A stretch of DNA of 64,000 nt from Eledone cirrhosa (Eukaryota), in contig OZ024755.1 of NCBI GenBank assembly GCA_964016885.1, forward strand, positions 13,764,001-13,828,000, read 5' to 3'. The translations under genes and the position numbers were made by a program. The notes under the pieces were generated by a model. The model made no database searches. It saw only the letters and a list, made by a program, of their open reading frames with translations, and was not told the origin of the DNA. Positions 19,987-50,148 of the stretch are shown here, in pieces (within the stretch, counting starts at the first letter, position 1; each line of letters opens with the position of its first letter).

Positions 19987-20170
19987 AGGAAAAGAGTCAG
20001 GACCTCTGCGGCTGAACTCTGGCCGTTTCGACAGCTAGATAGATGTCGAAATGGCCGGAGCTCAGCCGTCGGTGTCCTGACTCTTTTCCTATTAACCACT
20101 CTACTACACTAAGTATCGAGTAATCTGGTGCGTTACGGTCCACCTTCTTCCATACCACACTTTCTTCGTA
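19987..20170 (+). mobile_element. Fold-back mini-element family H1, copy 1
   Basis: Inverted arms spanning 19987-20090 (AGGAAAAGAGTCAGGAC...GTCCTGACTCTTTTCCT), 80-nt tail ending CTTCGTA, TA repeats on both sides. Confidence 0.8.
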
Positions 20171-20339
20171 ATATATATATATATGTATGTATATACAATA
20201 TATACACATACACACACGCGCACGCACTCACACACATAAACCTACGTATGTTAAATATTGGGATTAGTCAGTGGGATAAAAAAATATTCACTTACTTTCA
20301 ATAAATCCCTACCATTTCCATTTGTAAGGAATTCGTAGG

Positions 20340-20570
20340 ATAGCGAAAATTGGGAGAGTAAAAAATTCATCAGGGGACGTTCTCAGTAGAGGAGCTAATT
20401 TCAAATGACCGCTAGAGGTGAAGATTTTTCAAAGGGAGACAAGTCACAAGTAATTCATTGTCATAGGGTATTGTAAATGAGTGAGACGCCAAGGAGATGA
20501 TCTGATGGTGGTGAGGGGTTAAAATATTGTTAAATATGTTTAATGTGCAGTAGGGAGATGTTGACATGAA
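20340..20570 (+). mobile_element. Possible CR1/L2-group LINE 3' end remnant
   Basis: Degenerate translation ..KIF..IVNE*DA..LNMFNVQ* resembles the RVVNxWNxL...NxFKxxLD terminal motif. Confidence 0.3.
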
Positions 20571-23086
20571 GATCTGAAAGTTTAATACACGAAGTACCAA
20601 CGAATAGTTGCAGTTACGATGATAGATTAAAGTATTGAATGGAGAACTGATATGAAGCCAAATAGGTTCAATTCATCAAACAACCACGAATAGTTACAGT
20701 AACGATTATAGATTAAACTATTTTAAGACGGGGAAGAAGCAGTATACAGTATAGATGCAGAACAAAAGTGACAGAAGTTAGTAAAAGGGACATATATGAA
20801 AACACACAATTACAGTTGCATGCATATATATATATAAATATAAATTCAGCGAGAATCGTATTTCGGCCGGTAGAAAAAGCGAAACGAAACGCAAAATCGT
20901 AGAAATGCTGGCAAGCGCTCCAATAGTTAAGAAAACTAGAGCTAAACAATATGTTAAAACGCCATACATATGTATATATATATATATATATATATATTTA
21001 TATACGCATATACATCTAGACACGCATGTAAATGTTTTAACTCTCATTACAGCAAATAAACCTTAACAACCCTCATAATACTGTCAGCCGCGACCAAGAG
21101 CCAGACGACATATTAAGGCCCGAGAAGGGTGACAGTCTTCACACTTAAGGGTTGACACATACACATAAACGCAAAAAAGACGACTAAATGTCAAATTAAA
21201 ATATTTTACGTCGCAAAAACGGTGGTAAATTTCGCTTCAAAGCATTACAGGGCCAATTAAATTTCCACAGCGAAGGTGAATGTATTTATTAGATTCTTCA
21301 ACGTGACTGGGCTTATAACATTTCCACTTTTCCGAAAATATCTTCTTCAGTCTTCGAAATGTTTTTAGCCGCTCAGTAAAACAAAGAATTGATTCGGAAT
21401 ATGAAGATATTGGGGGTGAGACATATCTGTCAGAAGTGTGACTCTGAAAAATTGAAACAAAATACCTATTTTTACCAGAGAAAAAAAAACAACCTGGAGA
21501 GTAATTTGCACAAGCGAATCTAAAGATCTAGTTTTCAAAGACGTGATATAGTTAACAATCTTTTTTGTTAGTACTGTATTTTAAAATTATTTTTTTTTAT
21601 CTTTGAAGATATTTTATATCCCCAAAGAGAGAATAATTTCTGCCGATATACAAAGCTAATGTGAAAGCCAAAAAAACTGTGTTCCCCAATACTTCTGTTC
21701 TGACGCCTCACTGCACTTAAATCTATTCCATGAAGCATCAATAAAGAATAAGTAGGTTCGTTTCCCACTAGGCTATCAATTTTTATTTGATTTAGTATTC
21801 AATATACTAATATAATACAATATATATATATATGTCTGTGTGTGTATATACAAATGTATAAGTATATAAATATATATATATATATATATGTACATGTGTG
21901 TATATATATATATATATATATATACACACCCACAAAAATACAAGATATACAACCCAAATATTTCCCGTTAAATATTAGTTTATGCATCGGTAAAAAAAGT
22001 TAACATTAAAAAATTACACATTAATTATTTTATATTCTTGTTTCTTTTTCAAGACAATTACCAACAATTATAATCTGAAGCAATATAATAAGCAATTTAT
22101 CGCATAATATCATCAGAGCGGCAGAAAATATGAAAAATATATCGAAAAATGTAGCTCTCAAAACTGTAGCTTTTAAAACTTTTGTATCATTTTTTTTGTT
22201 CTTAAACGTAACAAAGCCGACAGAATGACTCTTTTATCTGAAGAGGTTTTAATGGAATAATTTAGATTGTTTCTGTTCCTTTTGTCTTCTTCGTTATAGG
22301 CAGTATGCTAGACAATGTGTGCTCTTAAAATTTATACTAATCTATAGATACAAACATACATGCCCAGAGGCCTAGTCATATGCTCAGAAACACAAATATA
22401 CAGGCGTACTTAAATACACACACACACATACACACACAGATGCCTATGTATATTATATATATATATATATATATATATATATATATATATATATATATAT
22501 ATATATATATACATGTATACACACACACATACACACATATATATATATTCATATGTATACGTATATATTCATATGTATATGTATATATTCATATATATAT
22601 GTATATATATATATATATATACATATACATATGAATATATGCATATACATATGAATATATGCATATACATATGAATATATATACGTATACATATGAATAT
22701 ATATACTATAAATATATATATATATACTATAAATATATATATATATATATATATATATATATATATATATATATATATATATATATATATATATATATAT
22801 GTATGTGTATGTGTGTGTATATATATATAATATATATTTAAGACATTTTGATACTGATAGTGGAAACAGATTATCTGATTATTCTTTGAACCAACTTAAA
22901 GTCGATTAATGTATGTATATATGTGTATAACTATTGTTGTTTAATGAGTACTTGGCTTTAAGTTGTGGTGCTTTCCCTCCCAGACATGAATATTTCCCCA
23001 ATCATACATGTGTGCGTGTTATATATATATATATATATATATATATATATATATATATATATATGTGTGTGTGTGTATATATATAT

Positions 23087-23296
23087 AGGAAAATGTTCAA
23101 GACCCCGACGGCAGAGCTCAAACCGTTTCGACGGCTATTTCTGGACTCTATTTCAGTCCAGAAATAGCCGTCGAAACGGCTTGAGCTCTGCCCTCGTGTT
23201 CTTGAACATTTTTCTATTACCCACTCTACTACCCAAAGTATTGAGTACTCTGGTGCGTTATGGTCCACCTCGTTCCTTACCACACTTCCTTCGTTA
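23087..23296 (+). mobile_element. Fold-back mini-element family H1, copy 2
   Basis: ~61-bp arms 23087-23147 / 23155-23215 with loop CTATTTC, same 80-nt tail, TA repeats on both sides. Confidence 0.8.
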
Positions 23297-23462
23297 TATA
23301 TATATATATATATATATATATATATATATATAAATTAAGGTAAAAGACTAATTGTCAGCGTTATCTTTTGCATTTATATTCTATATCCAAACCTGCATTG
23401 TTCTGGCCTTCTAACTTCAAACATATATATATATATATGTTTTACCTTAATTTATTAGTATA

Positions 23463-47667: not shown

Positions 47668-47806
47668 TGGCGGTGGATTAGCAGCATCGATAGAGCGCCG
47701 TACAACATATTTTGCAGCATATAGTTAGGCCCCTTTACGTTCAAATCCTACCGAGAGTAGCTTTGCCTTTCATCATTCCGAGGTCGATAAAATAAAATAT
47801 CAGCCA
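47668..47806 (+). mobile_element. SINE family A
   Basis: GGCGGTGGATTAGC head, GTTCAAATCC, CTTTCATCATTCCGAGGTCGATAAAAT. Confidence 0.7.
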
Positions 47807-48410
47807 TGTCATTCAGTACAGATTAAGGAAGAGATTAAATAGATTTGGATCTTGTAGCTACTCAGCAATTTTCCAATTTAAACTAGCGAAAGAATTCCAT
47901 GATATCAATCATTAGAATTAAAGATATAGTACTTTTAAATTTAAATAATTTCATAATGCTATTAACTTATCGACCGAAAACCTTTAACCTTCAAATACAA
48001 AATGAATTTATTTTTAACTATTTCATACATGCGTTTAATCTCATTAAGATAAACTGATTATAAAACTATATGAGTAACATCTAAGCATTAGTTATTGGTA
48101 GGTTAAAATGTTCTAAATTCGTCTGACGGGGTGAAATATAAAAGGTATTGGTCTATACATTGTCTGTATTGAAGTAATAAATGCAGTCAAAACTTTCGTC
48201 TGCTTCAGTCGTTTGAAATTTAAATTTAAATGATTTGGTAGTCTACTGAAAATGGCGGCTAATCGTTATGTTCGTTTTGAATGTTATAAATGAATTATGG
48301 AAACAATATATTGCTTAAGGAAGATAAAACAGATATATTTTATTGGTACAAATTTGTGCAGTAATGGTTATAGTGTATCGTCCGTCTATTTTGACGGTGA
48401 GCGTTCGAAT

Positions 48411-48813
48411 CATGATGGATCTTCCGTCGGTTTCGAAGATGAGTGTTCCAGTTGTTTGATCAACTAAACGTTCCAGTCATGATGGGTATTCCGTCGGTAT
48501 CGATGATGAGTGTTCCAGTTGTTTGATCACCTGAACGTCCGACTCATAAATTAACAAGCAACAATGACGTATTCGACAGATATCTATGACCTTGAGTAAT
48601 TCTGAGGAAGAATCCGTGTAACATTATATGTGACCTGGCTAGACAGGTCGAACCCACCCTACATACATTTACACAGTTTACATCTGCACACTTTAATTCA
48701 CAAGGCCTGGCTTGACTGGGGATGTGGTAATAGAAATGTTCCTAAGATGCCACACAGTGGGGTCGAACCCGAGGTCTCATGTTGACGAAGCAAACTTCTT
48801 AGCCACACAGCCA
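48411..48813 (-). mobile_element. SINE family B tail (with a 67-bp tandem duplication) and a SINE family C copy
   Basis: CATGATGG..CCGTCGGT..GATGAGTGTTCCAGTTG at 48411 and 48478; family C at 48680-48813. Confidence 0.6.
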
Positions 48814-49943
48814 TCTTTAAAACATTAATACTGACCACATATATGGGCTGCTTTCAGAGAGAAAGAGGGAGAGATGGGGTGTTGTTAGTGGGATCATTCA
48901 ACAGTGATGTGCTCTGAGTAATACATTAGTTAACATATTGGTAATGTGTTTATAGTCAAGATAGATGACTATTAATATCCCTTAGTTAGAGAAAAAGGGA
49001 TCACGCCTGCATCTCATCTGTTTTAATGACAGGTTACACCAGTTCTATAATATCCCTATTTTTCTCTTGTCACCGGAAGCGAGATTTGAGCTCAAAGATC
49101 CGGAACAGGTTCACAAAACATCCTATTTGAGGTTTAACAATTCCGCATATCCACAGCCCTGCAATGATACTTTATTTATCGACCTGAAAGGAAAAAAGAC
49201 AAACTTAGCCTCAATGGGATTTAAACTCAGAGCGTATAGTGCCAGAACAAATAGTCCATACGTCTTTGAACATACGTTACCTTAAACAGGCTGACCTGCG
49301 GCTAAACAATATCAACAATAGCAACGATAATTGAATTTTATCGTTTCATGAAGGATAAAAGACAAAGTTAATTCTAATGGAATTTGAACTCAAACGTATA
49401 GCAATTCGCCGCCTAATGTGAGCTGTAAATAAGTATGATAGGATTGTAGGATTCACCGAAATGTAAATATTAGGAGAATGTTGAATCAAATGAGGGTCTC
49501 ATTTGTTTGCAGTGCTGATTTTAACACCTCTCGTGAACACCCAACCTCTATATAATATATAAGGTGTTAAAGAAAGGAGAAATAAGATTGAGCAACGTTT
49601 ACACCTTTTACAATGGCGTCAACAACAACAGGAAATTTTAAACAGATTCACAAATGTGTTAATATTTATATAAATAAATTGACGTGTTCTGTTTGTTAAT
49701 TTGCAAGCTATATGTAAAAAGCAGAGAAGCAAATTATATACATATAAGGTCATTGAACATTGCTGCTAGTTTTCATTATATATATATATAATTTCAAACC
49801 TGGTCACTGTTTCAAAACATACTTACTTGTCATATATATATATATATATATATATATATATATATATATATAGTTTCCATTATATATATATAAATATATA
49901 TAGTTTCCATTTTATATATATATATATATATATATATATATAT

Positions 49944-50148
49944 AGGAACGAGTAGGACCCCGACGGCTGAGCTCAAGCCGTTTCGACGGCTAATTCTGGA
50001 CTAAATTTAGTCCAGAATTAACCGTCGTAACGGCTTGAGCTCAGCCGTCGGGGTCCTACTCGTTCCTATTACCCACTCTATTACCCTAAGTATTGAGTAC
50101 TTTGGTGTGTTATGGTCCATCTGGTTCCTTACCACATTTCCTTCGTTA
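49944..50148 (+). mobile_element. Fold-back mini-element family H1, copy 6
   Basis: Near-perfect 124-bp palindrome 49944-50067 (two arm mismatches), same tail, (TA)n on both sides. Confidence 0.85.

Follow-up and report, generated by a model that had tools for sequence, protein, structure and literature searches.

Several clades of Penelope-like elements (PLEs) have been described as inserting into (TA)n targets with a tail and an inverted, 5'-truncated copy of the element (PMC8557442). Targets of this kind are listed for Hydra-1_Obim, Naiad_Obim, Naiad_Ovul and most Hydra families, and Penelope-13_HM has an attached inverted copy (PMC8557442). Self-priming was inferred for rotifer Penelopes from the palindromes at their inverted junctions (PMC3846280). 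In the case of Poseidon_Ac, in vitro work has revealed that both strands of an AT-rich target are cut and extended, that two starts of reverse transcription bracket the tail, and that the template is an uncleaved hammerhead RNA (PMC11167929). The formation of inverted ends and the completion of the second strand in PLEs have been called unresolved (PMC8557442, PMC11167929). The present analysis concerns H1, a family of short hairpins in a 64-kb window (the whole stretch analysed) of the Eledone cirrhosa genome, assembly GCA_964016885.1, contig OZ024755.1, positions 13,764,001 to 13,828,000 of the forward strand. Copy searches, joints and arm tables cover this window.

An initial annotation of the window had taken H1 for a PLE-mobilised element that targets (TA)n, rather than a miniature inverted-repeat transposable element (MITE) with terminal inverted repeats (TIRs). 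This view is supported, notably by a sister family, F2, whose layout matches a PLE 3' end, and a PLE origin in some form appears highly probable. Beyond that we lean, with some reserve, towards regarding H1 units as dead, extremely shortened PLE 3' ends that would have been built from two complementary DNAs (cDNAs) at insertion.

Layout, flanks and abundance of the H1 hairpins

The hairpins of about 200 bases within TA repeats are genuine sequence features and abound in this genome. The window holds five two-armed, tailed copies (c1, c2, c3, c4 and c6) and one lone arm (c5); all six sites, and all four arm pairs, that the initial annotation had quoted could be located. The order within the unit is the same in all five tailed copies, the inverted arm being followed by the direct arm and then by a one-sided tail of 76-77 nt:

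19985..20169, plus strand: c1, inverted arm about 19985-20038, direct arm about 20039-20092, tail 20093-20169
23085..23294, plus strand: c2, inverted arm to 23147 (end TGGACT), direct arm 23148 (start CTATTTC) to 23217, tail 23218-23294
27169..27319, minus strand: c3, inverted arm of 58 nt 27319-27262, short direct arm, tail 27245-27169
38452..38655, plus strand: c4, inverted arm to about 38507, direct arm 38510-38579, tail 38580-38655
38686..38734, plus strand: c5, lone, tailless and decayed arm that stops in a TA repeat near the internal arm end
49942..50146, plus strand: c6, inverted arm 49942-50005, direct arm 50006-50069, tail 50070-50146

A BLAST comparison of the six copies with the window yielded no additional copy, and no tandem array of the unit was found there. 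The youngest copy is c6, with arms that are 97% complementary. Two features of the initial description hold in part. A fold-back followed by a tail of about 80 nt fits four of the five tailed copies, which form hairpins of 54-64 bp, but c3 is asymmetric, its inverted arm of 58 nt facing a direct arm of only about 18 nt. Similarly, the tail end regarded as conserved is CTTCGTTA in three of the five copies, but CTTCGTAA in c1 and CTTTGTTA in c3. The tails show 7-17 pairwise differences over 77 columns and fold no better than shuffled sequences in any of the five copies (z -0.64 to +0.06). The minimum free energy of the hairpin ranges from -48 to -77 kcal/mol in the four symmetric copies.

Enrichment of (TA)n in the flanks, which had been proposed as a check, is evident. 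All ten ends of the five units adjoin TA runs, that of c1 on the right after one extra A, as compared with 3.4% of window positions that are flanked left and right by at least 8 nt of alternating TA. TA microsatellites are plentiful in the window, whose GC content is 33.6% and of which (TA)n with n of at least 5 makes up 7.0%. The association is thus far beyond chance, though the runs may have expanded after insertion. Any target-site duplication would be concealed by the TA repeats.

Several familiar classes of short elements do not accommodate these units. A TIR MITE has inverted repeats at both termini and a constant spacer between them, whereas H1 has a 77-nt tail outside one arm, centres that vary from 18 to 43 nt, and asymmetric copies (c3, c5). 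Helitrons and Helentrons have 5' TC or T-flanked ends and a 3' CTRR end with a subterminal hairpin, whereas H1 units run from AGG... to ...CTTCGT in (TA)n, with tails that fold like shuffles. A tRNA-derived short interspersed element (SINE) has a tRNA-like head; ARAGORN found 0 genes and Rfam 0 matches at gathering score over the whole window, although decayed heads can escape both. A non-LTR retrozyme was likewise rejected, as there is neither a tandem array nor a complete type I hammerhead in the unit.

To survey copies beyond the window, the direct arm and tail of c6 (50004-50147) served as query, at 80% likeness, against three contig sets (X1, X3, X5) and one set of raw reads (X6). X3 comes from the same sample as X1, which is possibly the source of the assembly; X5 bears a different organism label; and X6 belongs to a separate study with the same species label, based on restriction-site-associated DNA (RAD) sequencing. 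Matches were found in 11,907 of 16.5 million contigs in X1, 11,450 of 16.3 million in X3, 38 of 8.3 million in X5, and 21,909 of 12,467,656 raw reads in X6. With a genome size of 2.8 Gb derived from PMC13282606, the share of X6 reads gives a rough copy number of 14,000-20,000, and the density in the window one of about 220,000. The copy number can thus be given only roughly, to the order of 10^4-10^5, as RAD bias and the use of a single window weaken both estimates. An exact scan for the tail or half-hammerhead patterns returned 0 loci in metagenome contigs, viral contigs and prokaryote genomes.

Fixed ends, mirrored arms and variable joints

The inverted arm terminates at TCCT^AT in all five units, as the initial annotation had stated. 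Moreover, 3,334 X6 reads exit the sequence at 50069 directly into (AT)n, and the same end is seen in another 792 reads, which are of the c1/c4 type; the fixed arm end therefore holds outside the window. Contigs continuing from the CCTAT end into (AT)n number 99 in X1, 86 in X3 and 3 in X5. In c6 this site is as follows:

50065..50069, plus strand: internal arm end CCTAT, putative second start of reverse transcription, from which reads and contigs pass into (AT)n

The outer arm had been described as copy-specific and mirrored within each copy. Mirroring is confirmed, but the sequence is not private to a copy, c1 and c4 having a common outer arm. From GAAAC to the arm end, left and right arms differ at 1 position in c6, 5 in c2, 4 in c4 and 7 in c1. 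The left arm of c1 is nearer to the right arm of c4 (4 differences over 45 columns) than to its own right arm (7), while the arms of c6 and c2 pair within the copy, in an arm tree drawn without c5 and without the short right arm of c3. The mirrored sequence is therefore a subfamily trait fixed at insertion, after which the two arms decay separately. At least four outer-arm variants exist, each on both arms. A fixed hairpin master would need paired changes for each of them, so that the arms are most likely regenerated at each insertion. The proposal that the arms are newly made was supported. Arm conversion, offered along with it, was not: the arms of older copies have drifted independently, those of c1 and c4 do not group by copy, and separate decay after insertion removes ongoing conversion.

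These data also bear on the idea that H1 is a fixed hairpin DNA element (fold-back, MITE-like or of Helentron type) whose arms are homogenised by gene conversion while the tip erodes. The units are short, abundant, above their surroundings in GC and capable of a strong DNA hairpin, and Mutator elements that target TA microsatellites are reported (PMC4486113). However, the inverted repeat is non-terminal on the tailed side, the arms of old copies are not homogenised, asymmetric and lone-arm copies occur, the tail has no subterminal hairpin beyond chance, and F2, with the same layout, matches a PLE 3' end. We consider such an origin very improbable.

Unlike the outer ends, the joints between the arms vary. 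All five centres differ, with 18 nt in c1 (measured between TTTC and GAAA), 43 in c2, 38 in c4, 42 in c6, and an asymmetric joint in c3. The centre of c6 is a perfect palindrome at the AA-TT boundary. In c3 the arms are joined via a common GG, the direct arm begins 2 nt past a predicted GUC cut site, and the direct arm lacks helix III and stem II sequence that is present in the inverted one. Among the joints listed from reads and contigs there are seven different opposite-strand ones, local alignment blurring their exact positions. The asymmetry of c3 and the difference between the c1 and c4 centres are, each taken alone, suggestive. The arm starts lie 77 nt apart on the template, and yet nine of ten arms, in a manual reading, end 8-25 nt upstream of GAAA, within stem II; therefore the stop tracks template position and not copied length.

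A mechanism that could account for these features is the following. The GIY-YIG endonuclease of a PLE would cut both strands of a (TA)n tract, and its reverse transcriptase (RT) would prime at both cut ends, at the tail end (CTTCGT) and 77 nt inward (TCCTAT). Two such starts would yield arms of unequal length whose outer ends are fixed, and the tail would be the difference between them. Both cDNAs would halt in or near stem II of the hammerhead in the PLE pseudo-long terminal repeat (pLTR), a stable hairpin where two cDNAs of the same sense may pair. Their 3' ends would then be joined via short palindromes or microhomology, such as AATT in c6 and GG in c3, and filled in. As both arms would stem from one source element, they would carry common subfamily variants and subsequently decay independently. 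This scheme, to which we give a slight preference, would explain the fixed ends, the one-sided tail, the mirroring, the variable joints, and the unequal and lone arms.

Alternatively, a single cDNA might snap back at stem II and copy its own strand as the inverted arm, as proposed for the rotifer elements from their junction palindromes (PMC3846280); the initial annotation had similarly invoked fold-back priming. The symmetric copies fit: four of the five units are near-symmetric about a natural hairpin, and c6 has its perfect palindrome at the centre. On the other hand, a snap-back at stem II predicts one copy of the loop, and the stem II loop hexamer is present twice, in opposite directions, in c2 and c6. 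Self-priming cannot produce an inverted arm longer than the direct arm, as in c3 and the sister families F2 and F4, or lone arms ending at the internal site, namely c5 and a fragment of a third sister family at 34669-34790. Nor does snap-back alone explain the fixed stop at TCCT^AT. Such an origin is improbable in our view.

Putative hammerhead remnants and sister families

When read tailward, an arm presents a stem strand ending in C, then GAAA, a helix ACGGC...GCCGT whose loop holds the palindrome GAGCTC, GUC, and GGGGTCC. Hammerhead positions (e.g., G10.1-C11.1) are numbered here by the standard scheme. The arms likely carry the 3' half of a type I hammerhead of the PLE pLTR kind, in c6 as follows:

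50006..50057, plus strand: predicted 3' half of a type I hammerhead, with the 3' strand of stem II, GAAAC at 50027-50031, helix III, GUC at 50047-50049, and GGGGTCC

The T at 50028 is a change private to c6, the majority of reads having GAAAC at 50027-50031. An unbroken helix III of 4-6 bp closing on GUC or GUU is found in four of the ten arms scored, with shuffle ranks of 1/3000 for c6L, 8/3000 for c3L, 20/3000 for c4L and 99/3000 for c2L. The direct arm of c4 has a complete 7-bp stem II (38510-38534) immediately before GAAAC (38535-38539), a feature matched in 1/3000 shuffles. The predicted stability of helix III is -30.7 kcal/mol in the dimer versus -7.1 kcal/mol. Genomic copies are predicted not to cleave, because the 5' core is absent and helix III has 5-6 bp with a 9-nt loop.

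Scanning the window for fold-backs and hammerhead cores brought out sister families with similar architecture; neither these nor the half-hammerhead figure in the initial annotation. The most informative of them is F2:

28234..28653, minus strand: F2 unit, inverted arm 28404-28653, direct arm 28412-28290, tail of about 60 nt, in (TA)n
39852..41312, minus strand: 5'-truncated decayed PLE, open reading frame (ORF) 40380-41312, hammerhead core 40140, F2-type end 39928-39852

The F2 inverted arm, of about 250 nt, is longer than the direct arm, and the two are 95% complementary across 123 nt. It contains a complete minimal hammerhead, with its core from 28459 on the plus strand. Both the F2 hammerhead (31/39 letters, with compensatory changes in stem II) and the F2 end (63/77) match the region just downstream of ORF 40380-41312, the minimal hammerhead of that PLE lying 240 nt beyond the stop codon. 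The ORF encodes an RT thumb and a CX4CX2C motif before a GIY-YIG-type nuclease, and this linker is of the Neptune/Nematis type (PMC8557442). Its best match is an Octopus vulgaris protein (P0001, 59% identity), labelled as an RT-domain protein by its source; it is also 41% identical over 291 aa to P0004 (821 aa), whose GIY-YIG match falls just below the Pfam cut-off, and it gave no Pfam hit of its own. As judged from these matches, the F2 layout, unlike that of H1, is tied directly to a PLE ORF. The linked PLE ORF that had been suggested as a check was hence found for F2, and none in the 64-kb window carries the H1 arm or tail. A second PLE ORF, frameshifted and decayed, lies between c2 and c3 on the minus strand (23808-26258), with pieces of RVT_1 (E 2.6e-15) and, at the C terminus, of GIY-YIG (E 5.9e-5). 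Neither ORF was retained as the H1 parent: 23808-26258 has no arm or tail sequence in common with H1 and is oriented oppositely to c2, and 40380-41312 belongs to F2.

Three pieces represent a further family, F3:

51090..51238, minus strand: F3 fold-back joined at hammerhead stem II (GAAAC-AATT-GTT)
27346-27468, minus strand: F3 piece, one TA tract away from c3
34669-34790, minus strand: F3 piece, lone arm ending at the internal site

F3 has a canonical GAAAC-AATT-GTT helix III, and its three copies show three layouts: a fold at stem II, a joint at the AATT palindrome, and a lone arm that passes through a decayed core and the matching helix I strand. In F4 (746-992), a long inverted arm faces a direct partner of 25 bp. 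Taken together, these sister families suggest that the PLEs of this genome routinely make inverted-arm units of this kind.

Related observations were made at other sites. F4 also occurs at 6896-7146, 11679-11736, 11860-11917 and 7527-7548; a hammerhead-like motif with the core CAGAAGA is present in both longer copies, and two of the short arms lie within a 181-bp tandem duplication. On the minus strand at 4013-3900, a TA-flanked fold-back is joined at stem II before GAAAC-TCGA-GTA, with CCGATGA at the joint. Related units with GAAAC-AATT-GTA are located at 1813-1976 and 50984-51056, both on the minus strand, the longer one with a helix I pair. These units have CTCGAGCT (at 1869 on the minus strand) in the place of the CUGANGA core, possibly a non-canonical or dead hammerhead variant.

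The same PLE chemistry might act on another template, either a short non-autonomous RNA that starts at stem II or a read-through transcript from a hairpin already in place. H1 would in that case propagate itself much like a SINE, as a parasite of a PLE, both arms being rebuilt in each round, a scenario that we regard as possible but clearly the less probable one. In its favor, nine of ten arms end within one zone 8-25 nt from GAAA and none of 11 reaches the CUGANGA core, whereas the arms of F2, F3 and F4 extend past their hammerheads; the rough abundance of 10^4-10^5 would also fit. In addition, stem II of c4 is preceded by TTT, one CpG transition away from the TTC expected of a fold-back template. 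These upstream letters can, however, also be read as the end of the left arm of c4 itself, or as a non-canonical core like that at 1869. A stem II of 7-12 bp, as a strong stop, accounts for the clustering of arm ends with no need of a short RNA. The joints do not pass from copy to copy as a unit, and their all being different fits independent truncated insertions. No RNA run containing the stretch was among the sequencing runs listed for it, and hence no transcript end came to light.

A number of observations weigh against the preferred reading of H1 as PLE 3' ends built from two cDNAs. The two PLE ORFs in the window carry neither the H1 arm nor the H1 tail, the H1 tail of 76-77 nt is twice the published 30-40 nt, and the same end site is used in only two of the three F3 arms. 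Deletions at the tip after insertion could have varied the centres, c1 being readable as c4 minus 20 nt, and a later deletion could have shortened the direct arm of c3. Other points concern the hammerhead. The 5' core CUGANGA is present in none of 11 arms and in none among 20 of the 469 loose-end rows. At helix III, changes on both sides are seen in 0 of 5 pairs, equally good pairing is reached in 130 of 500 shuffles, and the covariation count is uninformative; a register shifted by +3 pairs 73.5% of the cells in the helix III alignment. The helix III test was failed by six of ten arms, through mutation, and 5 bp are reached at 34 of 860 GAAA sites in the window, three of which lie in H1 arms. 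An earlier shuffle comparison, which took the direct arms of c2 and c4 with their mutated helix III and a slice cutting into stem II of c4, fell short of significance (142/5000 and 696/5000) and was repeated on all arms. Finally, no Rfam hammerhead model matched, although the intact F2 motif escaped Rfam as well; relaxing the cut-off to E <= 10 brought up nothing over c6 and F2 but microRNA-type and chance matches.

Other repeats in the window lie apart from these families. A dispersed repeat of 150-200 bp, which we take to resemble octopus SINEs, is present in many copies, among them 10495-10695, 26434-26597, 39639-39843, 45621-45839, 46128-46427, 54735-54926, 60910-61101 and 61631-61799. An old dispersed repeat occurs at 5713-5744, 17006-17100, 26834-26929, 48402-48547 and 60011-60082; at 48.4 kb it includes a tandem of two 67-bp copies, and 17042-17059 is an 18-bp palindrome. 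A lone near-perfect hairpin of 43 bp at 29703-29745 lacks TA flanks and has no second copy in the window.

Significance and comparison with known systems

As its layout is known, H1 matters mostly for annotation, and beyond that for mechanism. Stubs such as these are easily mistaken for MITEs, palindromes or microRNA hairpins, as illustrated by the weak matches of microRNA models over c6. With many thousand copies, two fixed starts and joints at stem II, H1 would provide a large natural record of the second-strand step of PLEs. If joints were tabulated across the genome, two-ended priming could be told apart from self-priming, and it could be seen whether folding of the ribozyme halts the RT. 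Should H1 instead be a self-propagating hairpin parasite of 150-200 nt, which shed the 5' half of the hammerhead, kept two RT start signals and has its arms rebuilt at each (TA)n insertion, a tentative view that we hold to be the weaker one, the implications would be different. The shape of a retroelement would be made by the insertion reaction and not inherited, and H1 would mark out the minimal cis signal that PLE mobilisation requires. The octopus genome would be seeded with hairpins of 55-65 bp, possible substrates of ADAR or Dicer, in tens of thousands of copies or more.

Literature searches yielded no description of the H1 family; it may already be curated in Dfam, Repbase or the O. vulgaris library (PMC13282606). 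Nine short H1 motifs, compared with the supplement of Craig et al., gave unrelated coding contexts or no match, with the proviso that FASTA line breaks could hide matches.

The closest relatives in layout are the insertion units of endonuclease-bearing (EN+) PLEs, i.e., Penelope/Poseidon, Neptune, Nematis, Hydra and Naiad. They have, like H1, a head-to-head inverted 3' segment, a one-sided tail, a palindromic or microhomology joint, and a (TA)n target, and their hammerhead lies, as the putative one of H1 does, about 100 nt from the 3' end (PMC8557442, PMC3846280). H1 differs from them in having no ORF between the arms and a tail of 76-77 instead of 30-40 nt (PMC8557442), as well as only the 3' half of the putative hammerhead and joints clustered at stem II. 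The two RT starts, the cutting and extension of both strands and the AT-rich target proposed for H1 are those of Poseidon_Ac from Anolis carolinensis (PMC11167929). That system was studied in vitro with a full-length element and a 30-40-nt tail, and second-strand joining went untested in that work (PMC11167929), whereas H1 is known from its DNA products alone.

The minimal hammerheads of PLE pLTRs resemble the candidate motif of H1 in their helix II of 7-8 bp, their G10.1-C11.1 closing pair and their palindromic loop 3 (PMC4209133). They too are mostly dispersed as truncated pieces, and Schistosoma has dual motifs on opposite strands (PMC4209133). H1 departs from them by a helix III of 5-6 bp, a 9-nt loop and the missing 5' core. 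Non-LTR retrozymes and non-autonomous PLEs such as MRC1 are, like H1, short and non-coding and, as H1 probably is, hammerhead-related and PLE-derived (PMC7229834, bioRxiv 10.64898/2026.07.22.740005, PMC8557442). They form head-to-tail repeats or contain complete ribozymes, whereas H1 consists of single head-to-head hairpins with half of a putative ribozyme. The layout of H1 is thus already in print as regards the inverted copy, the tail, (TA)n targeting and self-priming; particular to H1 are its abundance, a tail of greater length, and the fact that all copies observed have lost one half of the presumed ribozyme.

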